NCBI GenBank assembly: GCA_964599365.1 | Contig: CAZRFL010000007.1 | Coordinates: 12,909 to 76,908 of the forward strand | Direction: 5' to 3' | Length of the DNA stretch: 64,000 bases | From: an uncultured Bacteroidales bacterium | GTDB lineage: Bacteria > Bacteroidota > Bacteroidia > Bacteroidales > CAIWKO01 | In this document: one piece after another, positions 3,502 through 23,326 of the stretch | Position numbering within the stretch: the first letter of the stretch is position 1 | How the letters are laid out: each line of letters opens with the position of its first letter | The notes under the pieces: generated by a model | Told to the model about the DNA's origin: nothing | The model's input: the letters and a program-made list of their open reading frames with translations, nothing else | Database searches by the model: none | Translations under genes and position numbers: made by a program

Positions 3502-3561
3502 GGTAAATTTTTTACAAAATTAGGAAAATATTTTGCTGCAGGCAGTTCAAAATAATTATCC

Positions 3562-4983: not shown

Positions 4984-5003
4984 CTGAGTCTTGCTTTTAA
5001 AGG

Positions 5004-6623: not shown

Positions 6624-6714
6624 AGGCTATCGTATTTTATTTCTTACAGAGCAAATATACTAATTATTTATGGGATAACACAAAACAGCAGGTTTTTTGA
6701 TTTTACGCAGAAGT

Positions 6715-9462
6715 TTACTCAACAATATAATTGAGCAATTTGGCGCTATCGGAGACGATGATGCTGTTCATTTTTTTGTTGAGCAAACTATTGATCTCAA
6801 TTTCTCGGTTACCTATGGTATAGGCATTGGTTTCCATGAAGCCCTGGTTATTCATCAGTATCAGACGCGATGCATTTTTATCAGGATAAATGATATAGAA
6901 TCTGGACGCACTCAATCGGAGATAAAAAGGTTTGTCGCCCGGTTCGTATTTGTTGAAACTTTCGAATATCTTTTTCTTGTTATGATTGTAAACAAATATC
7001 TTTCCTAGGTCGAAAAAGATGAAATCGTTGTGGCCGTCATTGTTGAAATCGCCGTAAACAAAATAATGCCCGTTGGTGAAAGAATTCATCTTCACTACAT
7101 CCACGGCTCCGTTGGGCGATATGAAAATGAGTTTTCCACTGCGTTCGGTGGTAAGGAGGTATTGTTTTTTACCATCGATGTGAATAAAAAAGCGACTGTT
7201 TTTGGCCTGCAGGAAAGGCTTTTTGTTTTTGAACACTTCATATCCTCTGCGATCGATGACATAAACACGACCATTTTTATCCGTAGCCAAAAGAAAATCC
7301 TTTTTAGCAAAGCGGGCATGTTCCACAGGTTTTAAGACCACTGCCAGAGTAGTGATATTGGTCCATCCTGCGGTGGGTTTTCCGTCGGGAGAATAGTTGT
7401 AGATCTTCTGATTCAGGCAGGGAACCAGAATACGATAGTTGCGGTTGTTGTCGTAATCGATAAGGCTGAGGCCGGCGGTTGCCGCAAAAGGAAGTTTGAT
7501 CTGCTTCTGTCCTGTGTTGGGATCTTTCAACCCCAGCATATGAATGTAGTTCCTCGAATTGAAAACCAGCAAAGCTTTGTTTCCGGGTTTTTGTTCCATC
7601 ACGAATATCTCGCTGACAGGAGTTTCGTCCAGGTGTTTTTTCCAGAGGAGTTCGCCGTTGTGATTCAACAGATACATGTTGTCTGCTATATCGAAGAAGA
7701 TCACTTTCTGTGTATGATCCACAGGGTCGGTAATAATATTGGCTTTGCGGACAATGGTGGTGTCGGCTTTAAACTCCCAGATGGCAGGATTCTCGTCGAT
7801 ATAAAACGAATTGTGTTTCAGATAGCCGTTCATGTAATACTTGCTTCCGCCCGAAGCAAACTGGAAGGCTACTGCCTGAAAATTGCGGAGGTCGCTTTCG
7901 CTTTTCCATAAAGAGCCTGAAATATCGCTGGCCAAATAGGAATTCATCAAGCCGAAACTTTTGCGGATGTTGGCATAGAAACAAAAATTGGCTTCGTCGG
8001 AAACATTGTCCGAAAAGCTTTTGTAGTTCTCGTTCTTGTCGAGGGTCTTGCCCGAGAGGTATCCCGAAAGGAATAGATCGAGCGAAGTAGGCGAACTTCC
8101 GAAGATCACATAATCGTTACTATGGGTGTAGCAAGCCGAATCGAGGGGGGCAAACAATTCGCCAAAGAAGTTGCGGAAAAACCTTTCGGGCAGAAATCTT
8201 TTTATGGCAAAGGAATCTTTTCCGCCTGCGATATTTTCATTGGTATTGGCCGAGATAGGGGCAATGCCTTCCAGGAATTCATCCATATCCTTGATTTTGA
8301 AAATGGCGTAATTGCGGTAGCGTGTTTCGGTATTGGGATTTTCGGTGATAACAAATCCTGCTTCTGTGGTCAGCTGGTTAAAGAAATTTTCTTCAATGTT
8401 GGTGTTTAAAACAGTATCGTAATACGAACAGATATCGCCGTAAGAGCGTTTATGGAAATTGGTTTTCAAAAAATCCGTGTAATCCGAAACGTATTTAGTG
8501 AAATCGCTGAGTCCCCAGAAAAACATCATAGCCGTATTGTCGGGGCAGACGGCGGTGAGCGATATCTGCTGAGGCTTCTGTTTGCTGTAAACCTTGTTGA
8601 AGAGCTGAATGGTATCATCCGAAAGGGCATATCCGTTGAGCAATAGTTCATCACTTTTTACCGTGAGGTCGAGTTCGGCCATATCGGCAGCCAGCGAAAC
8701 ATATTTCATCTCGGTCATGGTATTCCTGACAAAGAACGGCTGAAACAGATTGTCGATATAAGCCATGTCGAGGTAAATGTTGGCATCTACGTTTTTGCCC
8801 GACATGGACCTGAGCCTGGAAAAGGTATCCGTATTGTCAATGCTGACTCCGGTGATAAGTGCGCTGAGGGAACTTTCGATGATGGCAGGAACTTCGCCGG
8901 CTATAAATATACCCTGATAGACGGTATAACAGAAGGAAGGTTTGCCCGGAGTTTTGATGATGCAGATGCGGCTGTCGAGGAATTCGGACCAGGTGATGGA
9001 GCTGGCAGGCGAAATATTTTTACGTATAAAATCATTTACCAAACGGTCGTCGTGAGGGCCGGGAAGATTGATGGTGTAAAGCGGCTTGTAGAAACCCCTG
9101 ATGGGTATCCAGGCTATGTATAAAGGATTTATCAGCAGGTTGTCGGAAATGTTTTTTTCGGTTTTTATAAGTGAATCTGCCAAAGCAATTTTGTGATTCA
9201 TTTGGTTGAAAAAAGGAAGGCATTGCAACTCTTTCCAAATGGCATTGCGCCCATTGATGTGATCCCAGAAACCCTGAGGCGAATTGATCTTGACCAGACA
9301 AACGGCATTGGGAGGAATGGCATTTATGGCAGGAAGTATAGGATCGCTCAGCCGGCGCACTATGGTATAACCCCAAACCAAAAGCACTATGGCAGCTACC
9401 GCCGACACCGAATAAATGATGTATTTTTTTGTATTGGTCTGCCGTTGGTAGGGGTTTCGCAT
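6715..9462 (-). CDS. Large hypothetical membrane-anchored protein
   Basis: 915 aa with a single N-terminal TM (IIYSVSAVAAIVLLVWGYTIV). The C-terminal half has beta-propeller-like repeated segments (...DFNNDGHNDFIFF...). No enzymatic motif seen. Confidence 0.5.
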   Translation of the reverse strand: MRNPYQRQTNTKKYIIYSVSAVAAIVLLVWGYTIVRRLSDPILPAINAIPPNAVCLVKINSPQGFWDHINGRNAIWKELQCLPFFNQMNHKIALADSLIKTEKNISDNLLINPLYIAWIPIRGFYKPLYTINLPGPHDDRLVNDFIRKNISPASSITWSEFLDSRICIIKTPGKPSFCYTVYQGIFIAGEVPAIIESSLSALITGVSIDNTDTFSRLRSMSGKNVDANIYLDMAYIDNLFQPFFVRNTMTEMKYVSLAADMAELDLTVKSDELLLNGYALSDDTIQLFNKVYSKQKPQQISLTAVCPDNTAMMFFWGLSDFTKYVSDYTDFLKTNFHKRSYGDICSYYDTVLNTNIEENFFNQLTTEAGFVITENPNTETRYRNYAIFKIKDMDEFLEGIAPISANTNENIAGGKDSFAIKRFLPERFFRNFFGELFAPLDSACYTHSNDYVIFGSSPTSLDLFLSGYLSGKTLDKNENYKSFSDNVSDEANFCFYANIRKSFGLMNSYLASDISGSLWKSESDLRNFQAVAFQFASGGSKYYMNGYLKHNSFYIDENPAIWEFKADTTIVRKANIITDPVDHTQKVIFFDIADNMYLLNHNGELLWKKHLDETPVSEIFVMEQKPGNKALLVFNSRNYIHMLGLKDPNTGQKQIKLPFAATAGLSLIDYDNNRNYRILVPCLNQKIYNYSPDGKPTAGWTNITTLAVVLKPVEHARFAKKDFLLATDKNGRVYVIDRRGYEVFKNKKPFLQAKNSRFFIHIDGKKQYLLTTERSGKLIFISPNGAVDVVKMNSFTNGHYFVYGDFNNDGHNDFIFFDLGKIFVYNHNKKKIFESFNKYEPGDKPFYLRLSASRFYIIYPDKNASRLILMNNQGFMETNAYTIGNREIEINSLLNKKMNSIIVSDSAKLLNYIVE

Positions 9463-9540
9463 AAAAATTTAGTCAGTATAAAAGTATTACAAAACTGAAT
9501 TCTGTGGAAAAATTTTTACAGATTTAAATCAACAGGTTTG

Positions 9541-9780
9541 TGTTAATTGAAGAAGTTGGAAGTTGGAAGTCCGAAGTGAGGAAGGATATATGGATAAATG
9601 GATGAATGGGAAAATGGATGGACAGAATAGGAGGTTGGAAATCACAAAAGACAAAACTCAAATAAATTCGAAATTCAAAAAAAATAAAATCACAAACATG
9701 AGAAGCCAGGGTTTGATAAATTGAAATTTATAAAATTGGAGTTTATTTGTAATTTGTTTTTTTGTTTTTTGGAATTTCCT
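9541..9780. repeat. Low-complexity 'stutter' intergenic block: 7-bp and 8-bp micro-tandem repeats followed by an A-rich/T-rich imperfect inverted repeat
   Basis: gaagttg-type 7-mer x ~4.5 (9552-9585). atggatNa 8-mer x 4 (9590-9621). A-rich arm 9640-9697 is partly complementary to T-rich arm 9712-9775. Confidence 0.7.
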
Positions 9781-10375
9781 AAAACGGTATTTTCAACTGT
9801 TCGTTCAGCCTGAAACTTTTGCGGTGGTAAGGGGTAATTCCATGCCGGATGATGGCATCGCGGTGGTCGCGGGTGGGGTAGCCTTTGTTTCGGGACCAGT
9901 GGTACATGGGAAATTCTTCGTGCAGTTGCCGCATATAATCGTCGCGGTGGGTTTTGGCCAGCACGGAGGCAGCGGCTATGCTAAGGTATTTTCCGTCGCC
10001 TTTTACAAAACAAATATGCGGGATGCCGGGATAAGGTTTAAAACGGTTGCCGTCTATTAGCAATAGTTCAGGAGTGCTGCCCAGGATCCCCACGGCATGA
10101 TGCATGGCCAGGATAGAAGCATTCAAAATGTTGATTTCGTCTATCACATTATTATCCAAAGGAGCCACGGCCCAGGCCAGTGCTACCTGTTCTATTTCTA
10201 TGCGCAGTTTATCGCGTTGCTTCTCGTTGAGTTGTTTGGAGTCGTTTAGCACAGAGTTCTTATAATTCTTTGGCAAAATAACCGCCGCTGCAAACACCGG
10301 CCCCGCCAGGCAACCTCGTCCGGCTTCGTCGCAGCCGGCTTCTAAAGTGTTTCGTTTATGGTAGGATTTTAACAT
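9779..10375 (-). CDS. rnhB: Ribonuclease HII
   Basis: 198 aa. Contains GCDEAGRGCLAGPVFAAAV (the DEAGRG catalytic motif) and ...DSKQL...SIAAASVLAK. Confidence 0.93.
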   Translation of the reverse strand: MLKSYHKRNTLEAGCDEAGRGCLAGPVFAAAVILPKNYKNSVLNDSKQLNEKQRDKLRIEIEQVALAWAVAPLDNNVIDEINILNASILAMHHAVGILGSTPELLLIDGNRFKPYPGIPHICFVKGDGKYLSIAAASVLAKTHRDDYMRQLHEEFPMYHWSRNKGYPTRDHRDAIIRHGITPYHRKSFRLNEQLKIPF

Positions 10376-10497
10376 TTGGATTTGAAGAGTTTTACCACAG
10401 ATTTACACAGAGAAAAATACTGAATTACACGGAGAAAATCTGTCTGTATGCTTACTTCATTATTCAAAATTCATTACTTCTCCTATCCTAAGACTTC

Positions 10498-11796
10498 TTA
10501 AACCTTCTTCGGCGCCAAAAACTTATTGAAAAGCAACAATCCAATAATAGTCACCACACCAATCAAACTAAAGATAAACCAAAGGGCAGATGGGTTTTTC
10601 AGGGTGTCGACAAAGTACACATACAGATTGGCTCCCAAAACACCTCCAATGCCGCTGCCTATCACTCCGTAAAGGAAAGAATAGCCCAGGTAAAGGGCTT
10701 TTTTGTCAGGAGGAGCAATCAGCCCTACATAGGAAATAAATTTCGGATGTGCGGTCATTTCGCCGATGGAAAAGATGATCATACCGGCAATAAATATCCA
10801 GGCATTGGGCGAGATGGCTAAAATGGCCATGCCTATGGTTCCCATGGTAATCCCCACAATCATAGTGGGTAGTGCCTTGGTATTTTTCACAATGCTCGAA
10901 ACCAAAATCTGCAGCAGGATAATCGTTCCGGCATTGATAACGGTAACGTGTTCGGCCTCGAATTTCCATTGAGGATTATCCATAAACAAACCCAGGAAGC
11001 CATTAACGAAATTGTCGACAGGCGTCATGTCCATGTATTCGCTCAGATACCACAGCACCGTGTCGAACATCTGGAAATACAAAATCCAGAAACCGGAGTA
11101 GATCAAAATCATCACAATAAAACGCCAGTCTTTTATCACCAGTATCATTTCCTTGGCAATGGTAATAAGGCTTTTTGAGTTGGCAGGCCTGACAGGTTCC
11201 TTATAAACAAATAAATTGAGCAGCAGCAACGAACCTGTAACTACTGATGCCATGATGAATATATAGGACCATGAATAACTTTTCAGCCAGGGTATCAGTA
11301 TCAATGGGAATATAAAAGCTCCGAGGTTAATGGCCCAATAAAAAATTCCGAAACCGAGGGTAGAATTACTTTCGTTTGTCGAACGGGCAATGGTTCCCGA
11401 AATTATAGGTTTGAAGAATCCCGCACCGGTAACCATCAGCAGAAGACTGGCAAAAACCAAAGGATATTCAGTGAACTGACTCGTGAAGAAATACCCGGCA
11501 CTCATCACAATAAAAGCAAAGATCAATGTTTTTTTGTATCCGTAGCGGTCGGCCACGGCCCCCGATATAATGGGGAGTAAATATAAAAGGGGAGTAATAG
11601 TGCTTTTGATCACGCCTACGCTTTCTTTCGAAAATCCCAATCCTCCGTCTTTGGTGCTCAGCACCAGATAGACCGAGAGTACCGACATCACTCCGTAGTA
11701 TGAGCCGCGTTCGAAGAATTCCATGGTGATCACCGTCCAGAAATTGCGGGGAAAGCTTCTAAAGCCGGATCGTTTTACAGAGGTTTGTTCCATCAT
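10498..11796 (-). CDS. MFS transporter, POT/PTR2-like peptide permease
   Basis: 432 aa, ~12 TM. The N-terminal FWTVITMEFFERGSYYGV matches the PTR2 ExxERxxYYG signature. Confidence 0.75.
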   Translation of the reverse strand: MMEQTSVKRSGFRSFPRNFWTVITMEFFERGSYYGVMSVLSVYLVLSTKDGGLGFSKESVGVIKSTITPLLYLLPIISGAVADRYGYKKTLIFAFIVMSAGYFFTSQFTEYPLVFASLLLMVTGAGFFKPIISGTIARSTNESNSTLGFGIFYWAINLGAFIFPLILIPWLKSYSWSYIFIMASVVTGSLLLLNLFVYKEPVRPANSKSLITIAKEMILVIKDWRFIVMILIYSGFWILYFQMFDTVLWYLSEYMDMTPVDNFVNGFLGLFMDNPQWKFEAEHVTVINAGTIILLQILVSSIVKNTKALPTMIVGITMGTIGMAILAISPNAWIFIAGMIIFSIGEMTAHPKFISYVGLIAPPDKKALYLGYSFLYGVIGSGIGGVLGANLYVYFVDTLKNPSALWFIFSLIGVVTIIGLLLFNKFLAPKKV

Positions 11797-11819
11797 GAGA
11801 TTTTTAGGCTTACAAAATT

Positions 11820-11853
11820 AAACAAAAATGCCCGGCAATTTCTTACCGGGCAT
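11820..11853 (-). terminator. Terminator hairpin downstream of the rubrerythrin-like gene
   Basis: 8-bp stem: atgcccgg (11828-11835) pairs with ccgggcat (11846-11853), 10-nt loop. On the minus strand it is followed by UUUUUGUUU. It lies 22 nt after the stop. Confidence 0.65.
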
Positions 11854-11874
11854 TTCATAGCACAAAAGCATTTA

Positions 11875-12537
11875 TTATTTTATGGGAATGAATTTATCTT
11901 TTCCGGTAGAGCATAGCTCGCATTCATCCTCCACATCCTTGGTGGTGTAGGTGAATCCGCATTTGGGGCAGACAAGATAATCAGAAGCCAGGGTTTTAAC
12001 TTTGTTGGCAGCCAGGGCATCGCTGGCGGCTTTGTACAGGGTCATGTGTTTCTTTTCGGTTTCGAAAGCCCAGCTAAAAGATTTAATGGCTTTTTCGGCT
12101 TTATCCACTTTTGCCTGATCGATAAATCCCTGGTACATGGCTTCTACTTCGTGTTTTTCGCCGGCATAAGCAGCTTCCAAATTTTCTTTGGTGGTTTTCA
12201 CTTCGAAAGTTTCGGGCGTAACATTTACGGTTTCTCCCATTTCTTCCAACACTTTTTTGTGGTTGGCTGCATGAATGCTTTCCGATTTGGAAGTAGCATT
12301 GAATAAAGAAGCGATCTGAGGCAATTTTTCCTCAGTTGCTTTGGCAGCAAAAGCAGCGTATTTGGCCGAGGCAGTGGTTTCGCCTTGCAGGGCCGCCTTC
12401 AAATTCTCAACTGTCTGATTCACCTTTTTGGTGCTGTCCTGTTGATCTTTGTTTTCACCGTTTTGTTTGTTTCCGCCGCACGATGCGACAAATACTGCCA
12501 TAGCAGCAATCAGTACAAAATTTACAATCTTTTTCAT
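11875..12537 (-). CDS. Rubrerythrin-family protein with a lipoprotein signal peptide
   Basis: 220 aa. Lipobox FVASCGG. Diiron four-helix motifs: LQGETTASAKY, SESIHAANH, YAGEKHEVEAMY, ETEKKHMTLY. C-terminal rubredoxin-like CPKCG...CELCS. Confidence 0.8.
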   Translation of the reverse strand: MKKIVNFVLIAAMAVFVASCGGNKQNGENKDQQDSTKKVNQTVENLKAALQGETTASAKYAAFAAKATEEKLPQIASLFNATSKSESIHAANHKKVLEEMGETVNVTPETFEVKTTKENLEAAYAGEKHEVEAMYQGFIDQAKVDKAEKAIKSFSWAFETEKKHMTLYKAASDALAANKVKTLASDYLVCPKCGFTYTTKDVEDECELCSTGKDKFIPIK

Positions 12538-13020: not shown

Positions 13021-15168
13021 TTATCTGATGATATTCATTTCCGTTATCAGATTTTTTGCCCCGGCATACTTGTCGATGATGAACAGAACGTAACGGATAT
13101 CGACGTTGATGGTCCTTTGCAGCTCGGGTTCGAAACAAATGTTGCCGCTCATGGCTTCCCAGTTGCCGTCGAAAGCCAGACCCACGAGGTATCCGTTTCC
13201 ATCTAAAACAGGGCTTCCCGAATTGCCTCCGGTGATGTCGTTATTCGAAATAAAGTCGGTTTTCATGATGCCGTTCTCTCCATATTCGCCGAAATCTTTT
13301 GCCTGATACAAAGCTTTCAATTTCGGAGAAACCACAAACTCCCAACTGCTGGAATCTTCTTTTTGCATGACGCCTTCCAGCGTAGTGTAATACTTATAAT
13401 GCACCGCATCAGAAGGATAATAATCCATCACTTTTCCGTAGGTGAGGCGCATGGTTTGGTTGGCATCCGGGTAATATTTGGTGTCGGGATTCATTTCGCG
13501 CAGCCCGGCAATGAACAGGCGTTTGGCCCCCGAGAGTTTGTTGTACGAATCGTTCCACGATTTGCTCAGGTTGTTATAGCTGTCAGCAAAAGAATTCATC
13601 AGTAGAAATAGGGCGTCCGATTCCAGGGCTTTCAGCGTAGGCTTATTCAGAAATGCATCCGTGCCTTCTCTGCTCTTAAAAAAGGATTTGCTGAACATGG
13701 CTGCCGTGAGTTTGGTAAAATCCGATTTGTACTTACCTACCAGTTTAATGAAGTATTCGGGCTGCTGTTCTTTGGGCACATTTTTGTAATACATGTCGAG
13801 CATGGCAGCAGTGATCTTCATATCTGTAGACAGACTATAATCTTTGTACAATCTTTCTGAACCTTTTTTTAGCTCATTAGTCTTAGCATGTATTTTTGCC
13901 GTATCCTGAACCTTCTCATTGAGCAGAACCAGTAATTCGCCGAAGCGGCGGGTAAAAGACATGGCCTCGCAACCCATAATGGCTTCAGTATAATAAATAC
14001 GGGCGATATTGGTGCTTCGCAAAGCCGTATAAGATTCATTAATAGTGGAAATAACCGTGCCGTATTTCTCTTTTCGGGTATTATCGGCCGTCGCCCAGTT
14101 GTTGAATGCGGCTTCTGTTTGCCTTTTCTTATCAGCCACATTCAGTTTATTCAATGCTTTCACAGTTCCGATAAAGTTCTTCCAATAGTTGGCAATGCCG
14201 GCATATTTCGAAGCATATTTGATGCGGATCTCGTCGTTGACATCCATATCGGCTCGCATGATCTCCAGTTTCTTTCCGCGTATATCGATGCGGTTAGGGT
14301 ATGATTGGGTCAGATAAAAATCGATGCCATAGGAAGTCAGGTAGCGTTCGGTGGTTCCAGGGTAGCCTAATATCATGGTGAAATCATTATTCTTAACTCC
14401 CTTGATGGAAACAGGCAAAGAATATTTGGGTTTCATGGGGACATTCTTGTCGGAATAGGGAGCAGGACTTCCATCAGGGGCAGTGTAAACCCTGAACAAA
14501 GAAAAATCGCAGGTATGACGCGGCCACATCCAGTTGTCGGTATCGGCACCGAACTTTCCTATGGATGAAGGGGGAGCGCCCGCCAGTCGGATGTCTTTAT
14601 AGGTTTGATAAACGAAAAGATAAAATTCGTTGCCTTCGAAAAAGCTTTTTACCACGGCATCATATCCGTTTCCTGAAGTAGCTTCTTTTTGCAGGGTTTC
14701 GGAAATCTCTTTGATCTTTTTGGTGCGCTCGTCTTCGCTCATGGTGGAGTTGAGTTGCGACAATACTTTTTGCGAAACATCTTCAATGCGTGCCAGAAAT
14801 CTGACGGTGAGACCCTGTATGGGTATCTCTTCTCTTGTATTCATGGCCCAGAAACCCTGAGTCAGGTAATCGTGTTCCACCGTGCTTTTCGATTGAATGG
14901 CGCCGTAGCCGCAATGATGATTGGTGAGCAGCAATCCCTGCGAAGAGATCATTTCGCCCGTGCATCCGTTGCCAAAAATAACAATGGCATCTTTCAGGCT
15001 CGATTGGTTCACACTGTAAATTTCTTCGGCGGTGAGCTTGAGTCCCATCTTCTGCATGTCCACATAATTCAGGCGGTCTATGAACAGTGGCAACCACATT
15101 CCTTCGTCAGCAATGGCGAGGCTCTTTCCTGCCACTATGAAAACCAACAATAACAATAACTTTTTCAT
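13021..15168 (-). CDS. S46-family dipeptidyl-peptidase (DPP7/DPP11-like)
   Basis: 715 aa. Signal peptide followed by DEGMWLP. Catalytic-triad contexts LTNHHCG and GGNSGSPVLD. Confidence 0.9.
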   Translation of the reverse strand: MKKLLLLLVFIVAGKSLAIADEGMWLPLFIDRLNYVDMQKMGLKLTAEEIYSVNQSSLKDAIVIFGNGCTGEMISSQGLLLTNHHCGYGAIQSKSTVEHDYLTQGFWAMNTREEIPIQGLTVRFLARIEDVSQKVLSQLNSTMSEDERTKKIKEISETLQKEATSGNGYDAVVKSFFEGNEFYLFVYQTYKDIRLAGAPPSSIGKFGADTDNWMWPRHTCDFSLFRVYTAPDGSPAPYSDKNVPMKPKYSLPVSIKGVKNNDFTMILGYPGTTERYLTSYGIDFYLTQSYPNRIDIRGKKLEIMRADMDVNDEIRIKYASKYAGIANYWKNFIGTVKALNKLNVADKKRQTEAAFNNWATADNTRKEKYGTVISTINESYTALRSTNIARIYYTEAIMGCEAMSFTRRFGELLVLLNEKVQDTAKIHAKTNELKKGSERLYKDYSLSTDMKITAAMLDMYYKNVPKEQQPEYFIKLVGKYKSDFTKLTAAMFSKSFFKSREGTDAFLNKPTLKALESDALFLLMNSFADSYNNLSKSWNDSYNKLSGAKRLFIAGLREMNPDTKYYPDANQTMRLTYGKVMDYYPSDAVHYKYYTTLEGVMQKEDSSSWEFVVSPKLKALYQAKDFGEYGENGIMKTDFISNNDITGGNSGSPVLDGNGYLVGLAFDGNWEAMSGNICFEPELQRTINVDIRYVLFIIDKYAGAKNLITEMNIIR

Positions 15169-15252
15169 GTATTTTTCGTATCAATTAGATTAATCAAGGC
15201 AAAAATAAATAGATTTTGCCAACAGACCGAACTATTTTGGTGTTTATAAATC

Positions 15253-16572
15253 ATGTTCTGTAGGAAATTGTCAATGCAAATCATAAAACAATACGGGGTT
15301 ATCATCCTGCTTTTGTTCATTGGCCTTGTGATTTCAGGCTGCCACCGCGACCTTTCCGATCCCTTTGTTCCCAAGGATAAGAAGTTCAAAACCCAGTTCA
15401 AGTTCGACAAGAAAAGGAACCGTACCGTCGAGAAGCATGTTTCCTTTGCCAAAGAAAAAGGCAAGTTCAAAGATTCATTTGCTGGCAGCCACGGCAGGGG
15501 CAAAAAAGGCGGCGGAAGCCACGACTCCTATTCTTCCAAATCGAAAAAGAGCTATGGAGGCACCCGCTTCAGTAAATCGAAAGGACGTGTGGTAGAAAAA
15601 GGATTTTTACCCTCCAAACGCAACAATGATTCCTACTCTTCCAAGGCGGGCCACAAGGACAAGAAGCACCGCAAGGGCGGCAAAGACTCCTACTCCTCGA
15701 GCATGAAGAAACATGAGAGCGGCAACCGTTTCAGCAAGTCGAAGAACCGGGTAGTCTCTTTCAAAAATGGCAGCAAAGGCAAACGAAACGGCAGCGAAAG
15801 CTTCGGATCCAAGAGAAAGGACAAGTCAGGCAATTTCAGTTTCAGTACCTCCAAAAACCGTGTGGTTTCCAACAAGGGAAGCCGGGGAGGAAACCGTGGG
15901 GGTAAAGACAGTTACGGTTCGAAAGGCAAAAGGAACTCAGGGAATTTCGGGTTCAACAAATCGAAAAAGCGGGTGGTGTCCTTCAAAAAAGGCGGCCGCA
16001 ACCGCATCAGCGGTGCAGACAGCTATGGAGGCAAGACCAACAGCAAGGGCAGCATGTTCCGCTTCGACAAAAAGAGCAAGCGAATAGTCTCGAAAAAGAA
16101 ATTCCTGGTATTCGGTTCCAAGAAAAATAGCCGCGACATGGGTTCCTATGCCGGTAAGAAAAGAAACTCGGGAGGTATGTTCTCCTTTAATTCGAAAAAG
16201 CACAGGGTGACCCGAACCAAGGCGGTCTTCAACGGCTTCAAACGTTTCAGGGCGGGCGACAGCTTCGGAGGAAAGCGAAAAAGCAAGGGAGGCGAATTCA
16301 GCTTCAACGTAAAGAAAAAACGTGTGGGCAAAAGAACCCTGCTATTCAAACCCCGCGACACCGACCCGGGTTCTTTCGGAAGCAAAGGAGGCAAAAGAAA
16401 TTCGCTTTACAAACAGAACTCTTTCAGCAAGAAGAAAAAGCGCATACACCATCGCAACGGCTTCTTCTGGGATCTGTTCGGAGGCCGCAACAAAGTCAGC
16501 CGAAAGAAAGACGAACTGCAACTCGACCTGTTCGATCCGAAACAAAAACACAGAATGCATCTTGCTCGATAA
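15253..16572 (+). CDS. Extremely basic, K/R/G/S-rich tandem-module lipoprotein (orphan)
   Basis: 439 aa. Lipobox LVISGC. About 8 modules of ~37 aa with the pattern DS[YF]G[SG]K-x-SG-x-F-[SGR]-F-x2-SK-x-R[VI]V, for example GNRFSKSKNRVVSFK, GNFSFSTSKNRVVSNK, GNFGFNKSKKRVVSFK, SMFRFDKKSKRIVSKK. It is the only long ORF in the region. An alternative start exists at 15274. Confidence 0.65.
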   Translation: MFCRKLSMQIIKQYGVIILLLFIGLVISGCHRDLSDPFVPKDKKFKTQFKFDKKRNRTVEKHVSFAKEKGKFKDSFAGSHGRGKKGGGSHDSYSSKSKKSYGGTRFSKSKGRVVEKGFLPSKRNNDSYSSKAGHKDKKHRKGGKDSYSSSMKKHESGNRFSKSKNRVVSFKNGSKGKRNGSESFGSKRKDKSGNFSFSTSKNRVVSNKGSRGGNRGGKDSYGSKGKRNSGNFGFNKSKKRVVSFKKGGRNRISGADSYGGKTNSKGSMFRFDKKSKRIVSKKKFLVFGSKKNSRDMGSYAGKKRNSGGMFSFNSKKHRVTRTKAVFNGFKRFRAGDSFGGKRKSKGGEFSFNVKKKRVGKRTLLFKPRDTDPGSFGSKGGKRNSLYKQNSFSKKKKRIHHRNGFFWDLFGGRNKVSRKKDELQLDLFDPKQKHRMHLAR

Positions 16573-16601: not shown

Positions 16602-17342
16602 ATGGAGTTTGCCGACAGAAAGATACCAGTGTTGTTGTACCACCGCGTCCTGAAAAGAGGCGACGTTAAGGGTCGGCACAAGATCTATATCTACGAGGAT
16701 AAGTTTCGCAGGCAAATGCAGTTCCTGAAACAAGCCGGCTACTCCGTAATCACTTTCGAAGATATTTATTACAACCGGGTTCCGGCGGATGGCAGTCCGA
16801 AGATCATCATTACTTTCGACGACGGCTACGAGGACAATTACAAGACGGCCTTCCCCATTCTGAAAGAATTCGGTTTTCGTGCTGTGATATTTCTGGTAAC
16901 AGGCGTGCAGCGCAACGAATGGGGCATAGTGGAAGGAGAACCGGCCATCCCCATGATGGATGAGCAGATGCTGCAGGAAATGCAGGACTTTGGATTTGAA
17001 CTTGGCGGACATACTGTCAACCATAAAGCCCTCACAAACTTGGGAGTTGAGGAGGCAATGAGCGAAATTTCCGGCTGCAAGACCGATCTGGAACAAAGAT
17101 ACCATAAGCCTGTTCTGAGTTTTTCCTATCCTTTCGGGGCACAGAATCAAGAGATAAAACAAATGGTGGCTCAAAGCGGTTTTATTTATGGAATCGCTAC
17201 CAATACCGGCCCTGACGATCTTTTTTCTGATCTGCTTCAGATCCGCAGAAATGAAATAGGCCCGAGAACGACCTTATGTTCGTTCAGAAAGAAAGCAGGT
17301 GCCTCAAAAAGTGTGTTTAATTTTTTTAAAAAATCAAAATAA
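16602..17342 (+). CDS. Polysaccharide deacetylase (NodB-homology domain)
   Basis: 246 aa. Contains IIITFDDGYEDNY (TFDDG motif), VIFLVTG, and GGHTVNHKAL. Confidence 0.85.
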   Translation: MEFADRKIPVLLYHRVLKRGDVKGRHKIYIYEDKFRRQMQFLKQAGYSVITFEDIYYNRVPADGSPKIIITFDDGYEDNYKTAFPILKEFGFRAVIFLVTGVQRNEWGIVEGEPAIPMMDEQMLQEMQDFGFELGGHTVNHKALTNLGVEEAMSEISGCKTDLEQRYHKPVLSFSYPFGAQNQEIKQMVAQSGFIYGIATNTGPDDLFSDLLQIRRNEIGPRTTLCSFRKKAGASKSVFNFFKKSK

Positions 17343-17343
17343 G

Positions 17344-18216
17344 ATGAAAGTTTCGGGATTTACCTTTGTGCGTAACGGCGTTAAATACGATTATCCTGTG
17401 GTGGAAAGCATACGTTCCATTTTACCGGTGTGCGACGAACTGGTGGTGGCCGTAGGAAATTCGGAGGACAATACCCTCGAACTGATCAAAAGTATCAACG
17501 ACCCCAAAATAAAGATCATTGAGACCATTTGGGACGATAGCCTGCGCAAAGGCGGACGGGTGTTGGCCGTAGAAACCGATAAGGCTTTTGAGGCCATTGC
17601 CGACGATAGCGACTGGGCTTTTTATGTGCAGGCCGACGAGGTGTTTCACGAGAAAGATATGAAGGCCATTTACGATGCCATGGTGCTTTATAAAGACGAC
17701 AAACATGTGGAGGGACTCATCTTCCGTTATCTGAATTTCTTTGGTTCTTACGATTATGTGGCCGATTCGCACAAATGGTTGAAGGATGAGATTCGTGTGA
17801 TACGCAACGATAAAACCATACGCTCGTGGAAAGATGCCATGAGTTTCCGCCGCGATGCCAAGGTGCTTAACGTGAAAAGAGTGGATGCCGACATTTTCCA
17901 TTACGGTTGGGTGAAGGACCCCAGAACCCAGATGGTGAAACGCAAAGATTTCGAAAAACTATGGCACGACGACAACTGGGTGGATAAAAACGTGGGCGAT
18001 GCCGACGAATTCGACTACCAGAACATTGATATGCTTTCGCTTTACCAGGGCACTCATCCCGAGGTTATGAAAGAAAGAATTGAGCGTGTGAACTGGAAGT
18101 TCTCCTTCGATCCCGTGAAGCGGCTGAAAGTTTCCTTCCGCATCAAACTCCTGAACTTCGTCCACAAATATCTGGGCTGGAAGATAGGCTTGTTTAAGAA
18201 TTACAAGGAGATATAA
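17344..18216 (+). CDS. Glycosyltransferase family 2-like protein
   Basis: N-terminus MKVSGFTFVRNGVKYDYPVVESIRSILPVCDELVVAVGNSEDNTLELI and YVQADEVFHE. I prefer the ATG at 17344 (1 nt after the deacetylase stop) over the track start at 17299, which overlaps the upstream gene. Confidence 0.6.
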   Translation: MKVSGFTFVRNGVKYDYPVVESIRSILPVCDELVVAVGNSEDNTLELIKSINDPKIKIIETIWDDSLRKGGRVLAVETDKAFEAIADDSDWAFYVQADEVFHEKDMKAIYDAMVLYKDDKHVEGLIFRYLNFFGSYDYVADSHKWLKDEIRVIRNDKTIRSWKDAMSFRRDAKVLNVKRVDADIFHYGWVKDPRTQMVKRKDFEKLWHDDNWVDKNVGDADEFDYQNIDMLSLYQGTHPEVMKERIERVNWKFSFDPVKRLKVSFRIKLLNFVHKYLGWKIGLFKNYKEI

Positions 18217-18341
18217 GCTGGAAATAGGAATTAAGGCTTATCCCTGTTCGGCTTAGGCCAGCCTAAGTCGTTTCTATTCTTTCTGGTTTCGCCTGATTTT
18301 TTAATCACATAAATCAATAAAATCAGATGAATCATCACCTG

Positions 18342-18358: not shown

Positions 18359-18712
18359 TCAGACAATTTCCCCACTTTCAGATATATCTTCTTTCTTATC
18401 GCAATCGAAGCACAACCTTTTACACTCGGGCATGGGGCATTGCCTTAGATGTTGAAAAGCCGGAGCTCCCGTGAAGGCTCTTAATTCGGGGGTGTTGTGA
18501 AATTCAAAATCTGTAACTCCCAATCCTTTATACAGTTTTTGTTTGTTTCTAAAAGAAATCTCTTTTTTCCCGTTTTCAATATCAGAAAGTACACTAATAT
18601 GCAATCCTGAAGTCTCGTGCAGGGTTTGCAAACTCCAATTTTTATCGTTACGAAGCTTCAGTGCCCTTTTGCCAAATTCTTTTAAGTATTCTTTAGATTC
18701 CTTATCTGCCAT
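18359..18712 (-). CDS. XRE/Cro-C1-type HTH transcriptional regulator with a C-terminal 4-Cys cluster
   Basis: 117 aa. HTH_3-like segment WSLQTLHETSGLHISVLSDIENGKKEISFRNKQKLYKGLG. C-terminus CPMPECKRLCFDCDKK (C-x4-C-x3-C-x2-C). Confidence 0.8.
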   Translation of the reverse strand: MADKESKEYLKEFGKRALKLRNDKNWSLQTLHETSGLHISVLSDIENGKKEISFRNKQKLYKGLGVTDFEFHNTPELRAFTGAPAFQHLRQCPMPECKRLCFDCDKKEDISESGEIV

Positions 18713-18969
18713 GGGTTACAGAGTTTTTACCAAATCAAATTTTCATTAATCCGTGAAAACCATTTCTTGACTTGTGCTGGTTAAGAAATTACCTTTACAC
18801 TCACATAGAAAATTTATAATACCAAAAGTAAATTTTTTTTAATTGCGTTCTATTAGTTGTAAAATAATTTTATAGTTCTTTCACATATTACAAGTTTTCC
18901 GCTTGCAGCAAAAGGCAATAGGCGATTGGTAAAATAAACGGAGGGCACTGCAGAATTTATTACAGAGTC

Positions 18970-19242
18970 TGCAGCCTGCGTTATGCATCCTGCACCACGC
19001 GTTTTTCGTTCTGCATTATGCGTTATTCATTCTGCACCATGCGTTATTCATTTTGCACTATGCGTTATTCATTCTGCACTATGCGTTATTCGTTCTGCAT
19101 CATGCGTTATTCATTCTGCACCATGCGTTATTCGTTTTGCACCATGCGTTATTCATTCTGCATCACGCGTTATTTGTTCTGCACCATGCGTTATTTGTTC
19201 TGCACCATGCGTTATTCATTTTGCACCTTACGTTTGCATTTT
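18970..19242. repeat. Tandem array, 13 units of exactly 21 bp (consensus tgcaccatgcgttattcattc)
   Basis: Units start at 18970+21k (k=0..12) with no indels. The ten central units differ only by transitions. It lies between the divergent XRE gene (ATG at 18712) and the orphan gene (ATG at 19346). Confidence 0.95.
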
Positions 19243-19345: not shown

Positions 19346-20248
19346 ATGAATTATAAAGTTATTGTACGCGACAAAGCCCAAATGAGGGGCGATAAGTTTC
19401 TCACTGATAATAATACGGCATTGAGTGCCATTACCTCCTATGCACCTATTAAAGCCAAATGGGATGCCGGATTTTTGCTTACGCAAAAAGCCAAACAGAA
19501 AATGTATGAGCAATACGGGTATATCACCTTTGACAAGAAGTTGGTAAGGGCCGAAATGATCAATATTTTTCTGCCCCAACTAGCCAAGGGCAGTAGTCAG
19601 ATGTTTGTGGCCGACAGGCTTGATTTGGCTAAGGCTCTGGATATAGCTCCTACATTTTTAACGCATTGTGGGGGTGAAGCCTGTATAGGTCGTGCCACCG
19701 ATTTGCTGAATATAGTTACCACCAATTCGGGTGTAATTACTTCGATTACCGTCACTGACAGAGCCGATATGACCGATGCACTGAAAGCTTTTAAGGACAT
19801 AAACGGTACTCCACAATCTCTCATTAAAAAGAGAAAAGCCGAAGGCACCGAAATTATGATTCCTTTGCTCAACGATCTGGATGTTACCAAACATTTTTTG
19901 ACCAAGCATATTTCGTCGCATAATCCCGATTTGTTGGCTGACTGGATTGCCATCATCAAGGTGGGTAAGTCGTCGTCGGCACGACATCTGTCGCTGGAGA
20001 TAAAATTGGTTGACGATGTAACGGGGGTGGCTGTGGTGAAGGGAGTAGTTACTTTGAGCAAAGGTATAGAAAAACATAAAAAACTCAGCAGCACAAAAGG
20101 TTTTGCACGCTTCTATAGTGTAATGGTGGGCACCTGGTCGTTTACGGTGGATAGCGAATTATATGAAAGCGCTAACATGTCGAATGTTGGAATTGATAAT
20201 ACAAAAACGGTTAGATTTACCATTAAACTGAAAAAGAAAAACTATTAG
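19346..20248 (+). CDS. Orphan protein: ~215-aa helical N-domain plus a C-terminal carboxypeptidase-regulatory-like (prealbumin-fold) domain
   Basis: 300 aa. The C-terminal IKLVDDVTGVAVVKGVVTLSKG...STKGFARFYSVMVGTWSFTVDSELYES...VRFTIKL fits the CarboxypepD_reg pattern by eye. The N-domain is not recognised. Confidence 0.6.
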   Translation: MNYKVIVRDKAQMRGDKFLTDNNTALSAITSYAPIKAKWDAGFLLTQKAKQKMYEQYGYITFDKKLVRAEMINIFLPQLAKGSSQMFVADRLDLAKALDIAPTFLTHCGGEACIGRATDLLNIVTTNSGVITSITVTDRADMTDALKAFKDINGTPQSLIKKRKAEGTEIMIPLLNDLDVTKHFLTKHISSHNPDLLADWIAIIKVGKSSSARHLSLEIKLVDDVTGVAVVKGVVTLSKGIEKHKKLSSTKGFARFYSVMVGTWSFTVDSELYESANMSNVGIDNTKTVRFTIKLKKKNY

Positions 20249-20401: not shown

Positions 20402-23326
20402 TTATCTCAACATCATTTTACACATTACCTCAACGGGATGCAGGGCTTTGCGGCCGGTGCCGTCTTTGATCTGGTGGCGGCAGGAGGTGCCCGGAGCCAC
20501 AATGAGTTGGTTCATGGGGGTCTTGCGGATGGCGCGAAACAACACCATTTCGCCTATCTTCATCGATATTTCGTAATGCTCTTTTTCGTAGCCAAAGGAG
20601 CCTGCCATACCGCAGCAGCCTGATTTGATCTCTACCACATGGCAGTTTTCGGGTATCTGCAGCATGTTTTTGGTGAAATCGGTTGAGGTGAGGGCTTTCT
20701 GATGGCAGTGTCCGTGGAGTTTTATGTGCATTTCTTTGGTCGAGAACGACTCTTTGCGGATTCGACCGGCCTGAAACTCGCGCATAAAAAACTCTTCGAA
20801 CATCATGCAGTGAGGGGCCATTTTTTCGGCTGCCTCCTGAAGTTCGGGCAGGGCCAGATCGGGATATTCGTCGCGGAAAGTGAGTATGGCCGAAGGTTCC
20901 AGCCCTATCAAAGGGGTTTCGGCGCTGATGATATCTTTAAGTGCCGCAATGTTGAAGTTGGCAATGAGTTTGGCTTTGCGCAACAGTCCTTTTGAAAGGA
21001 AAGCGCGGCCGCTTTCGGCGTGGGCCGGAATGATCACCTCATAGCCCAGGTTGGTCAGCAGTTTCACCACCCTGATACCAATGATGGAATCGTTATAATT
21101 GGTAAACTCGTCGTTAAACAGGTACACCCTTCCGTTGGGGAAGCTTTTCCCTTCAATTTTTTGGGTATATTTTGCGTACCAGGCAGTAAGGGTTTGCTTG
21201 TTCAGCAAGGGTATGCTGCGTTTGGGCGCAAATCCCAGCACCGATTTGATGAAGCCCGAAAACATGGGCGTCTTCGCGAAAAAGTTGAAAGCAGAAGGCC
21301 AGATGGCTCCCAGTTGGTTCACCCGGTTGATGTTGGCTATCATGCGGGTGCGCAGGCTTATGCCGTGCACATCGTAGTAATGCTGCAGAAATTCGGGCTT
21401 ATATTTGGCCATATCCACATTCGACGGGCATTCCGACTTACATCCCTTGCATGAGAGGCAGAGGTCCATCACCTCGTATATCTCCTTATGGTCGAAAGGG
21501 TTTTGTTTTTCGGAATTTGTCAGAAACTCGCGCAACACATTGGCACGGGCGCGGGTGGTGGTTTTTTCGTCGCCGGCTGCCATATAGCTGGGGCACATGG
21601 TGCCGCCGATGATGCTCGATTTGCGGCAATCGCCCGAGCCGTTGCATTTTTCCACAGCCCGCAAAATACCGTGATCTTTAGAGAAATCGAAAACGGTATC
21701 AATTTTCCTTACAGGCTTGCCCGGTTCAAACCTGAGCATGCTGTTCATGGGCGGGGTCTGGGTTATTTTGCCGGGATTGAAAATGCCGTTGGGGTCCCAG
21801 GTCTGCTTGATGTCCTGAAGCAGGGCGTAGTTGCGGTTGCCCACCATCATTGGGATGAATTCGCCGCGGAGGCGGCCGTCGCCATGCTCACCGCTCAGCG
21901 ATCCCTTATATTTTTTTACCAGTCGCGCCGTCTCCAGGGCCACAGTGTGGAACAATTCCACGCCTTTGGGGTCCTTGAGGTTCAGCACGGGCCTGATGTG
22001 CAACTCGCCGGTGGCAATGTGGGCGTAATACACCACGGGCAGGTTCAACTTGTCCAGTATGGCCTGCAGTTCTTCTATATAATCGGGCAGCACTTCGGGC
22101 GCTACAGCCGTATCTTCAATCACGGGCACGGGTTTGGCATCGCCGGGATAATTGCTCAGCACGCCGAGTCCTGCCTTGCGCAGTTCCCACACCTTTTTGA
22201 TGTCGCCGTCCTTCACCACAGGGAAATGGTAGCCAAAGCCGCTTTCCCTCATATCGGCTTCCATGGCCTTGCATTTGGCTTCTATCATGCCGGGCGCCTC
22301 TTCGGCAAACTCTACTATCAGCAAAGCACCGGGCTCGCCCTGAAGAAAGAAGCGGTTCTTCTTTTGGGTGATATTTTCTTTGGTAAGATCCAGTATAGCT
22401 TTGTCCATCAGCTCCACAGAGGTCGGCATATGCCGCAGTGCGATGAGGTTGGCCTGCAGGGCTTCTTTAACCGATTTCATGTGTACGCAAACCAGCACCT
22501 TATCTTTGGGAGGCAGGGGGACGAGGTTGAGTTTGATCTCGGTGATGAAAGCCAGGGTGCCTTCGGAGCCGGCAATCAGCTTGCAGAAGTTGAATTTCGA
22601 GCCTTTTTCGCTGAAAGGCTGGCAATCCATCAGCAGGTCTATGGCGTAGCCGGTATTGCGTCGTTCGAGTGTCCTGGCGGGATATTGTTCGGCAATCTCT
22701 TTCTGGTTATCCTTATCCGAAAGTATCTTATGGATGTTGCGGTAGATGTCGCCTTCCAGGCTGGGCAGGGTAAGCTTTTCCAGAAATTCTTCCTGGCTGA
22801 GTTCGCCGAAAGTGGCTTCGCTGCCGTCGCTCAGAATGGTTTTCAGCTCCATCACATGATCGCGCGTACTTCCGTAGATGAGCGAATGGGCCCCGCAGGA
22901 GTTGTTGCCCACCATGCCGCCCAACATACAACGGTTGGAAGTGGAGGTTTCGGGGCCAAAAAACAAACCCAGTTTTTCCATTTCCTTGTTCAGTTCGTCG
23001 AGCACCACGCCGGGTTCTACCGAAACCCAATGATTTAGTATGTTGAATTTGAGGATGGAGTTCATGTAGCGCGACACGTCTACCACCATGCCGTTACCTA
23101 CCACCTGTCCGGCCAACGAAGTTCCGGCGGTGCGGGGAATGAGGGGTATCTTGTTTTCCGAAGCAAAGCGGACTATCTTTTTGATGTCGTCGGCATTCTT
23201 CGGACGAGCTACGGCCAAAGGCTTTTCGCGGTAAGCGGAGGCATCGGTGGAATAAATGATCAACTGAAGGCTGTCCGTAAACAGGTCACCTTCCAAGGAA
23301 TTCTTCAAATTGAGCAAGTTATCCAC
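20402..23326 (-). CDS. YdiJ-like FAD-linked oxidase fused to Fe-S/CCG domains (probable D-2-hydroxyacid dehydrogenase)
   Basis: 974 aa. FAD-binding IPLIPRTAGTSLAGQVVG. Ferredoxin-type CNGSGDCRKS...CPSY and CLSCKGCKSECPSNVD. Cys-rich CCG-type SGCCGMAGSFGYE. The start codon at 23326 is GTG. Confidence 0.85.
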   Translation of the reverse strand: MDNLLNLKNSLEGDLFTDSLQLIIYSTDASAYREKPLAVARPKNADDIKKIVRFASENKIPLIPRTAGTSLAGQVVGNGMVVDVSRYMNSILKFNILNHWVSVEPGVVLDELNKEMEKLGLFFGPETSTSNRCMLGGMVGNNSCGAHSLIYGSTRDHVMELKTILSDGSEATFGELSQEEFLEKLTLPSLEGDIYRNIHKILSDKDNQKEIAEQYPARTLERRNTGYAIDLLMDCQPFSEKGSKFNFCKLIAGSEGTLAFITEIKLNLVPLPPKDKVLVCVHMKSVKEALQANLIALRHMPTSVELMDKAILDLTKENITQKKNRFFLQGEPGALLIVEFAEEAPGMIEAKCKAMEADMRESGFGYHFPVVKDGDIKKVWELRKAGLGVLSNYPGDAKPVPVIEDTAVAPEVLPDYIEELQAILDKLNLPVVYYAHIATGELHIRPVLNLKDPKGVELFHTVALETARLVKKYKGSLSGEHGDGRLRGEFIPMMVGNRNYALLQDIKQTWDPNGIFNPGKITQTPPMNSMLRFEPGKPVRKIDTVFDFSKDHGILRAVEKCNGSGDCRKSSIIGGTMCPSYMAAGDEKTTTRARANVLREFLTNSEKQNPFDHKEIYEVMDLCLSCKGCKSECPSNVDMAKYKPEFLQHYYDVHGISLRTRMIANINRVNQLGAIWPSAFNFFAKTPMFSGFIKSVLGFAPKRSIPLLNKQTLTAWYAKYTQKIEGKSFPNGRVYLFNDEFTNYNDSIIGIRVVKLLTNLGYEVIIPAHAESGRAFLSKGLLRKAKLIANFNIAALKDIISAETPLIGLEPSAILTFRDEYPDLALPELQEAAEKMAPHCMMFEEFFMREFQAGRIRKESFSTKEMHIKLHGHCHQKALTSTDFTKNMLQIPENCHVVEIKSGCCGMAGSFGYEKEHYEISMKIGEMVLFRAIRKTPMNQLIVAPGTSCRHQIKDGTGRKALHPVEVMCKMMLR

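Follow-up and report, generated by a model that had tools for sequence, protein, structure and literature searches.

Does the open reading frame (ORF) at positions 15253-16572 on the forward strand of a 64,000-nucleotide stretch of DNA from an uncultured Bacteroidales bacterium (assembly GCA_964599365.1, contig CAZRFL010000007.1, positions 12,909 to 76,908; hereafter the window) encode a real protein and, if so, what would that protein do? The product, 439 amino acids followed by a stop codon, begins MFCRKLSMQIIKQYGVIILLLFIGLVISGC and consists largely of very basic repeats placed behind a lipoprotein-type signal. An earlier note on this DNA had described it as an orphan and suggested that it binds anionic polymers from the surface or the periplasm. 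Our analyses showed that the ORF is a genuine coding gene under strong purifying selection and that it belongs to a family. As a tentative reading, which we hold with limited confidence, we propose that the product is a periplasmic, lipid-anchored and largely disordered polycation that acts as a multivalent binder of anionic envelope material.

Comparison with two close relatives showed that the frame was intact over all 439 codons, at 96% (locus L007) and 85% (locus L008) amino acid identity, while the remaining five frames contained 6 to 28 stops per genome. The codons of the window and of L008 differed by 151 synonymous and 64 non-synonymous changes, and third codon positions held 180 of the 261 nucleotide differences. 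The ratio of non-synonymous to synonymous substitution rates (dN/dS) of the whole gene was 0.072 against L008 and 0.081 against L007, with dS ranging from 0.28 to 1.5, and that of the combined repeat region (residues 75-400) was 0.05-0.08; these values were comparable with that of the adjacent S46 peptidase gene (0.087). The earlier note had stated that a frame not conserved in relatives would indicate non-coding DNA, and the frame proved to be kept, at a dN/dS of 0.07. Phenylalanine was encoded by TTC in 87% of cases, against about 50% in the neighboring genes, and this difference from the neighbors would be consistent with selection on translation.

The gene was GC-richer than its surroundings, as had been noticed before, although the excess was modest: 0.483 compared to 0.425 for the whole window and 0.45-0.47 (0.452-0.467) for the adjacent genes, and it was driven by the GC content of third codon positions (0.627). 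The overlapping shadow ORFs of the earlier note were also found, at least eight of them in other frames. Tandem Repeats Finder detected no repeat in the DNA of the gene, and the protein repeats must therefore be old and diverged. Together with the absence of homopolymer runs of seven bases or more, this ruled out phase variation driven by slippage. No further copy of the gene turned up when all six frames of the window were searched with the profile.

The mature chain of 409 amino acids contained 29.6% lysine plus arginine and 27.9% glycine plus serine, and had an isoelectric point (pI) of 11.25 and a net charge of about +94. The lipoprotein is thus a genuine polycation, as had been claimed, and the binding of polyanions is therefore physically plausible. 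The richness in basic residues, glycine and serine was likewise borne out, but the statement that acidic and large hydrophobic residues were almost lacking was not, since the mature chain has 28 aspartates and glutamates (6.8%) and the whole protein has 38 phenylalanines (8.7%), phenylalanine being one of the defining residues of the repeated module. The motif [DEG]S[YF]xxK occurred ten times and the motif F-x-F..K-x-[RH]-[VI] eight times, at spacings of mostly 35-41 amino acids, the commonest being 37. Shuffling the residues 5000 times at constant composition gave on average 0.03 and 0.07 occurrences, respectively, with a maximum of 2. The aromatic residues autocorrelated most strongly at a lag of 37 (z 3.4) and again at 74. 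Because the motif counts lie far above those of the shuffles and the autocorrelation has this lag, we consider the modular build to be real.

Five parts were distinguished along the 439-amino-acid ORF. The predicted signal peptide (residues 1-30, 15253-15342, +) has a basic n-region and a hydrophobic core, in the layout MFCRKLSMQIIKQYG-VIILLLFIGLVI, and ends in the lipobox L-V-I-S-G-C, with the codon of Cys30 at 15340-15342, so that the lipobox described earlier was found in place; its dN/dS of 0.81 is typical of signal peptides, and the same layout was seen in all full-length homologues. It is followed by a conserved N-terminal mature region (residues 31-73, beginning HRDLSDPFVPKDKKFKTQFKFDKKRNRTVEKH; 15343-15471, +), which contains most of the nearly invariant columns of a 16-sequence alignment of the family (A1), is 98% identical to L008 with a dN/dS of 0.012, and includes the first predicted beta-hairpin, with strands modeled at residues 49-52 and 57-60. 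The variable-number repeat region (residues 74-255, 15472-16017, +) is built of half-modules (DS[YF]SSK) together with complete modules of about 37 amino acids; its dN/dS was 0.045, and the block is gapped or absent in many homologues. The core of fixed length (residues 256-417, 16018-16503, +; dN/dS 0.080) contains four modules, each predicted to form a beta-hairpin of the type F-x-F-x / turn / R-V-V-x. The C-terminal family signature (residues 418-439, KKDELQLDLFDPKQKHRMHLAR, 16504-16569, +) has L426, F427 and P429 invariant or nearly so, and the core and this tail together, from residue 256 to the end, measure 182-184 amino acids in most homologues of the near clade.

AlphaFold2 models of the full protein, made from the 16 sequences, had a mean predicted local distance difference test score (pLDDT) of 46.5 and a predicted template-modeling score (pTM) of 0.15, and those of the conserved 184-amino-acid C-terminal block had values of 56.3 and 0.17, respectively. 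The pLDDT was below 50 throughout the variable repeats. Both runs gave short hairpins in which strands of four residues (F-x-F-x and R-V-V-x) flank a lysine-rich turn, with a pLDDT of about 65-73; in the core these were located at residues 269-280, 310-321, 349-360 and about 390-399. No packing between hairpins and no tertiary fold appeared in either run. From these models we infer that the protein may be a disordered string bearing isolated hairpin beads.

The searches for homologues showed that the lipoprotein is not the orphan it had been taken for. A word-indexed search of 5.8 billion proteins gave 16 clusters at 90% identity, all unnamed or labeled 'hypothetical', and a profile search that covered all 1.84 billion representatives at 50% identity gave 37 members at E≤1e-3, 15 of them at E≤1e-30. 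When one genome from each of 185,579 species was scanned, 13 loci were found, all in metagenome-assembled genomes (MAGs) of uncultured Bacteroidales or Bacteroidota, and a scan of metagenomes with a 7-sequence alignment of the distant subgroup added nine loci of the distant clade. According to the titles of their records, the MAGs that carry the family come from digesters, sludge and similar samples. The earlier view that no known family could be assigned was confirmed: the lipoprotein had no Pfam or NCBIfam match at E≤0.1, the Pfam scan of 35 members, read at E≤1, yielded nothing but isolated hits, no Pfam family being matched by more than one member, and the PDB profile search with the family gave no match at E≤10. 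Full-text searches of the literature on basic or lysine-rich repeat lipoproteins found nothing relevant. The family is therefore real, small, taxonomically narrow and previously undescribed.

The full-length members share an invariant lipobox cysteine, very basic repeats in variable number and a C-terminal E-L-x-L-F-[DN]-P-K-M motif. The cysteine was invariant in the 16 aligned sequences, and [SGA]-C followed a hydrophobic stretch in every full-length distant relative, while the remainder of the signal peptide varied freely. The N-terminus of the near clade is strongly conserved (CHRDLSDPF[IV]PKDKKFxTQFKFxxxxNRTVEKH). The number of repeat units varies, total length ranging from 151 to 589 amino acids and the net charge of the longer members from about +50 to +125; in member P0011 the variable region holds about five near-identical copies of the 17-amino-acid unit GGGFGKDSFSSRKGKRT. 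The C-terminal signature, in the general form [KR]KK..E-[LM]-x-L-[FW]-[DN]-P-[KR]-M, was found in nearly every full-length relative of both clades.

Shadow frames had misled gene calling in this family. At 7213-8534 of locus L020 a shadow ORF of 228 amino acids had been called, and the true gene had been truncated to 177 amino acids from an internal GTG, the tblastn match extending further upstream without a change of frame. Seen by eye, the N-terminal part of P0006 and the C-terminal part of P0002 look like off-frame shadow ORFs of the window gene, which suggests frameshifts that would be either assembly errors or pseudogenes (P0006, P0002 and P0025 were flagged).

The product is a lipoprotein-type precursor by its sequence features, bacterial lipoproteins being the only class whose defining features it carries; lipoprotein processing is predicted because the lipobox cysteine (I-S-G-C30, fitting the consensus [LVI][ASTVI][GAS]-C) is invariant, and the assignment made in the earlier note stands. 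Its placement at the surface was disfavored. Surface lipoproteins of Bacteroidota carry a lipoprotein export signal (LES) after the cysteine, with the optimum C-X-K-(D/E)2-X and, for example, SDDDD in B. fragilis and SDDFE in F. johnsoniae (PMC5080379), and no such signal was found after the cysteine in either clade. The window protein reads C-H-R-D-L-S-D, with a single acidic residue after a basic one; the other near-clade sequences read CHRDL[ST]D, CHHDFSD or CHRNL[VI]D, and those of the distant clade CHNKTN, CNSKMG and similar. Given the absence of the LES, we predict a tether that faces the periplasm. The net charge of the residues directly after the cysteine, HRDLSDPF, is not positive, as would suit export.

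The mechanism that we propose with the same caution is as follows. Once exported and lipidated at Cys30, the chain of about +94 would stay tethered to a membrane on the periplasmic side. Along this mostly disordered chain, about nine short amphipathic cationic beta-hairpins (F-x-F-x, a lysine-rich turn and R-V-V-x) and aromatic [DG]-S-[YF] motifs would bind polyanionic envelope material by electrostatic and aromatic contacts, in a multivalent manner. Surfaces of anionic lipid or lipopolysaccharide (LPS), or peptidoglycan, would be the most likely targets. The mode may be like that of the MARCKS effector domain, myelin basic protein or LPS-binding cationic hairpins, by analogy only, and the invariant C-terminal motif would probably be a short docking peptide for a partner.

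Several points weigh against this proposal. To pass a chain of about +94 through Sec is unusual, and it is energetically unfavorable because the charge has to move against the membrane potential. The very low dN/dS of residues 31-73 and the nearly fixed length of the block, 182-184 amino acids in most near-clade members, point to specific partners rather than to generic, charge-driven binding. The conserved pairing with the S46 gene, described below, is not accounted for by a polyanion binder, and the low confidence of the AlphaFold2 models may stem from the shallow alignment of 16 sequences and not from true disorder.

A more specific version of the proposal, which we consider unlikely although worth stating, is that the lipoprotein is a new envelope component whose hairpins would zip together or organize anionic layers (leaflet, LPS, peptidoglycan), or would form a charge-driven condensate in the periplasm, with its C-terminal L-F-D-P-K-M docked to a specific partner, possibly the S46 peptidase.

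Comparison with known systems gave likenesses of mode or build, and none of the systems is a homologue. MARCKS, through its effector domain, and myelin basic protein resemble the lipoprotein in being very basic (pI about 11) and unstructured, with clusters of lysine and arginine that alternate with phenylalanine, for example KKKKKRFSFKKSFKLSGFSFKKNKK compared to GNFSFSTSKNRVV and EFSFNVKKKRV of the lipoprotein; in MARCKS, a lipid anchor adds membrane avidity, myristoyl there and predicted N-acyl-diacylglyceryl here. No sequence homology was detected in Pfam or PDB, and these proteins are cytosolic and eukaryotic, whereas the lipoprotein is bacterial, is predicted to be exported and has hairpin modules of about 37 amino acids and a conserved terminal motif. 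The LPS-binding loop of Limulus anti-LPS factor and the beta-hairpin antimicrobial peptides are short hairpins in which basic residues alternate with aromatic or hydrophobic ones around a basic turn, like the predicted F-x-F-x / K-K-x-K / R-V-V-x hairpins; those of the lipoprotein, however, lack disulfide or cyclic stabilization, are arranged in tandem in one lipid-anchored chain and have no detectable homology to them.

Among the envelope proteins of E. coli, RcsF and LpoB are lipid-anchored and have disordered segments that reach across the periplasm, and basic residues of RcsF contact LPS. Their linkers of tens of residues lead to a folded domain, whereas nearly the whole mature lipoprotein of 409 amino acids is predicted to be repetitive or disordered, with a charge of +94 and no detectable globular domain. 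The Vlp and Vsa proteins of Mycoplasma and the H.8/Lip antigen of Neisseria carry, behind a lipoprotein signal, tandem repeats in numbers that differ between strains or species, but their repeats are short, near-identical in DNA and phase- or size-variable, while those of the lipoprotein are diverged, lack slippery homopolymers and are under strongly purifying selection. AlgP of Pseudomonas and Hc1 and Hc2 of Chlamydia resemble it in their lysine-rich, low-complexity tandem repeats and very high pI; they are cytoplasmic DNA binders with Ala/Pro/Lys repeats and no signal peptide, in contrast to the invariant lipobox and the Ser/Gly/Phe/Lys modules, without Pfam match, of the lipoprotein. Functional amyloids such as CsgA of curli and FapC have tandem strand-turn-strand repeats rich in Q/N/G/A and dedicated secretion genes nearby. 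Tandem hairpins are also predicted here, but an amyloid of this type was rejected in view of the Lys/Arg-rich composition and charge of +94, the absence of a Pfam match to curli or Fap proteins, and the absence of csg- or fap-like genes among the neighbors seen. By its sequence the lipoprotein would be a repeat-containing envelope lipoprotein of a new small family, in which the combination of an export signal with a charge of about +94 is unusual.

The same charge and the regularly spaced aromatic residues would also suit an adhesin or matrix organizer at the surface or outside the cell, whose ligands would be extracellular DNA, polyphosphate, acidic exopolysaccharide or particles of negative charge. 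Basic clusters such as KKKRV resemble heparin-type XBBBXXBX sites, and the host samples, digester and sludge metagenomes by their record titles, are rich in such polymers. The residues after the cysteine (C-H-R-D-L-S-D in the near clade, C-H-N-K-T-N or similar in the distant clade) correspond neither to C-X-K-(D/E)2-X nor to SDDDD or SDDFE (PMC5080379), and Pfam matched no C-terminal domain of the type IX secretion system in the lipoprotein. We regard this surface role as improbable.

Two genes lie directly downstream in the window, and both had been pointed out in the earlier note. A polysaccharide deacetylase of the CE4 type (Polysacc_deac_1, PF01522, E 9e-25; 16602-17342, +) begins 30 bp after the lipoprotein gene. 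It is followed by a GT2-like gene (17344-18216, +) encoding a protein of about 290 amino acids with a weak, below-cut-off match to PF13704; its start was placed at the ATG at 17344, the listed ORF beginning at a GTG at 17299, and its orthologue in L022 starts MKVSGFTF. A terminator-like hairpin with a 9-pair stem and a T-rich tail, a match to the consensus only, follows the GT2-like gene (18249-18270, +), and no terminator-like site was found on the + strand between the three genes; for these reasons a three-gene transcript is likely in the window.

We mapped the neighbor proteins of the window onto all the fetched loci and also read the available gene calls. This showed that the deacetylase gene is directly downstream of the family gene in three lineages and two arrangements (the window with L007, the P0004 loci L001/L002/L009, and L010), but not beside it in L003, L008, L011, L014-L018, L022 and the whole distant clade. 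The GT2-like gene follows directly only in the window, L008 and L022. These two neighbors are thus present in the window as described, but, with three lineages each, they are not a feature of the family. Membership of a poly-N-acetylglucosamine (pga/ica) system was also rejected. The deacetylase scored 73 bits against the PgaB cut-off of 321.9 and 47.7 against the IcaB cut-off of 248, and its N-terminus (MEFADRKIPVLLYH) has no evident signal peptide; there is no PgaC-type synthase, the GT2-like protein giving only the sub-threshold PF13704 match, and the family as a whole does not keep the linkage.

A heavily O-glycosylated, proteoglycan-like lipoprotein, carrying many glycans in the periplasm or envelope on the D-S-[F/Y] tripeptides with which the modules begin and which would be sequons, would be compatible with the polyanion binder proposed above, and the deacetylase and GT2-like genes, which are probably cotranscribed with the lipoprotein gene, would possibly contribute. 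In Bacteroidota, glycoproteomics defined the extended motif of general O-glycosylation, D(S/T)(A/I/L/V/M/T/S/G/F/C), and the glycoproteins are mostly lipoproteins and inner-membrane-associated proteins (PMC8729774). The window protein contains seven D-[ST]-[FY] sites against 0.36 expected, the near clade is similarly enriched, and the D-S-[F/Y] sites lie in regions predicted to be disordered. However, tyrosine is absent from the published list for the third position, so that two of the seven sites (D-S-F) fit and the five D-S-Y sites do not (PMC8729774), and the deacetylase and GT2-like genes are each linked in only three lineages. Members of the distant clade have zero or one such site, often with E-[ST]-[FY] instead, and glycosylation therefore cannot explain the module across the family. 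This too appears unlikely.

The most conserved neighbor is on the other side. The S46 dipeptidyl-peptidase gene (13021-15168, -; PF10459, E 1e-239) is divergent from the lipoprotein gene, and besides the window 22 fetched loci show the family gene and the S46 gene side by side in this manner. Among them are all distant-clade loci for which upstream sequence is available; there, identity of the S46 protein falls to 57%, and the genes on its far side are different (L026, L028, L030). The family gene has no adjacent S46 gene in the P0004, L010 and L012/L013 lineages. Other adjacencies are conserved in the same loci, for example that of rubrerythrin with S46 and, in the distant clade, that of ManC downstream, and the S46 pairing may be simply inherited gene order. 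In the window the two divergent genes share an intergenic region of 84 bp (15169-15252), whose conservation is limited to close relatives; about 20 nt before the ATG it has TATTTTG, a candidate match to the Bacteroidetes -7 promoter element, TAnnTTTG.

The lipoprotein might accordingly be a partner of the S46 peptidase, co-regulated with it from the shared divergent promoter region and serving as its tether, regulator, substrate presenter or regulated proteolytic substrate. The persistence of the divergent pair, including where the genes beyond S46 differ, favors this, as does the alternative arrangement of the P0004 loci (L001/L002/L009), in which the family gene lies 24 bp after a directly upstream pair of M16 peptidase genes. 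The conservation of the rubrerythrin-S46 and ManC pairs tells against it, since gene order may be inherited as such in a narrow lineage, as do the lineages without an adjacent S46 gene. The S46 protein is itself basic (pI 8.3), which makes simple electrostatic tethering unlikely, and a lipidated N-terminus is no substrate for an N-terminal exopeptidase. Such a partnership seems quite unlikely, more so than a surface or glycosylated lipoprotein.

Other observations were made on this side of the locus. Among solved structures, those nearest in sequence to the S46 peptidase are of the Asp/Glu-specific DPP11 enzymes (E 1e-175). At one position, however, it has a glycine (FDGNW) where these have an arginine (FDRNW). 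This position is that of Arg673 of P. gingivalis DPP11, which sets the acidic P1 specificity, and because of this glycine the window enzyme is probably not Asp/Glu-specific despite its nearest relatives. A block containing the genes for LptE, DUF5723, a 539-amino-acid ORF, DUF3352 and RNase HII (window 2992-12537) is conserved in L001/L009/L010 and is inverted, between the two groups of MAGs, relative to the family gene and the deacetylase gene, which stayed together through the inversion; in the window arrangement the MFS, rubrerythrin and S46 genes lie between the block and this pair. In L005 (1721-7188) the S46 side is replaced by a phage-type integrase gene and an HTH_17 gene followed by several ORFs without Pfam match, which looks like an inserted mobile element.

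RNase HII adjoins the family gene or lies near it in several loci: in the second arrangement (L001/L002/L009 and L010) the deacetylase gene comes between the family gene and that of RNase HII, and in L012/L013 RNase HII directly follows the family gene. This proximity, a composition typical of nucleoid proteins, and the C-terminal Q-L-D-L-F of the window protein, which matches the clamp-binding consensus QL[SD]LF, could suggest a cytoplasmic, membrane-tethered nucleic-acid binder, with an uncleaved N-terminal anchor, a polybasic chain kept inside according to the positive-inside rule and a beta-clamp motif. The glutamine is not conserved, however, most members having E-L-E-L-F, E-M-x-L-F or E-R-D-L-F, and the invariant part is L-F-[DN]-P-K-M. 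The n-region is basic as in export signals, and the lipobox cysteine is the only N-terminal residue kept family-wide, which makes sense only for lipoprotein processing. With the motif glutamine mostly replaced by glutamate and an export signal present, a link to RNase HII or to the clamp was set aside as unlikely, and we give the cytoplasmic reading very little credence.

A spurious ORF in a low-complexity, non-coding region, for which the low sequence complexity, the many shadow ORFs, the lack of a known family and homologues labeled only 'hypothetical protein' could be cited, is refuted by dN/dS values of 0.05-0.08 at dS of 0.28-1.5, by the frame, which relatives with 85-96% protein identity keep for all 439 codons whereas the other five frames have 6-28 stops, and by homologues at 25-50% identity that preserve the architecture.

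Elsewhere in the window, a 21-bp tandem repeat (18968-19234; 12.7 copies, 84% match, consensus TCTGCACCATGCGTTATTCAT) occupies an AT-rich gap between a gene for an HTH_3 regulator (18359-18712, -) and an ORF without Pfam match (19346-20248, +), and generates three overlapping shadow ORFs. A stand-alone GGDEF-domain protein of 191 amino acids (27907-28482, -), unrelated to the lipoprotein, is encoded amid core metabolic genes, namely those for GcpE, an MFS transporter and a 974-amino-acid FAD-linked oxidase fused to a 4Fe-4S domain (20402-23326, -). Rfam and tRNA scans found no RNA genes in the window.

The signature of the family (the lipobox, the F-x-F/K-K-K-R-V hairpin modules and the C-terminal E-L-x-L-F-D-P-K-M) can be made into a profile model, which would allow annotation of its members in Bacteroidales MAGs from digesters and sludge, where they are now 'hypothetical' and sometimes mis-called through shadow ORFs. 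For the present, little practical impact is expected, since the hosts are uncultured and the family is small. Bacteroidota are not known to have Braun's lipoprotein, and the tethering of the envelope in this phylum is poorly understood. If the zipper or condensate reading were true, the lipoprotein would be a bacterial counterpart of membrane adhesion of the myelin-basic-protein type and an unusual Sec substrate. If the predicted periplasmic polycation holds, it would be among the most positively charged exported bacterial proteins described, and it would raise the questions of how a chain of about +94 crosses the inner membrane against its potential and of what a tethered polycation does in the envelope of Bacteroidota.

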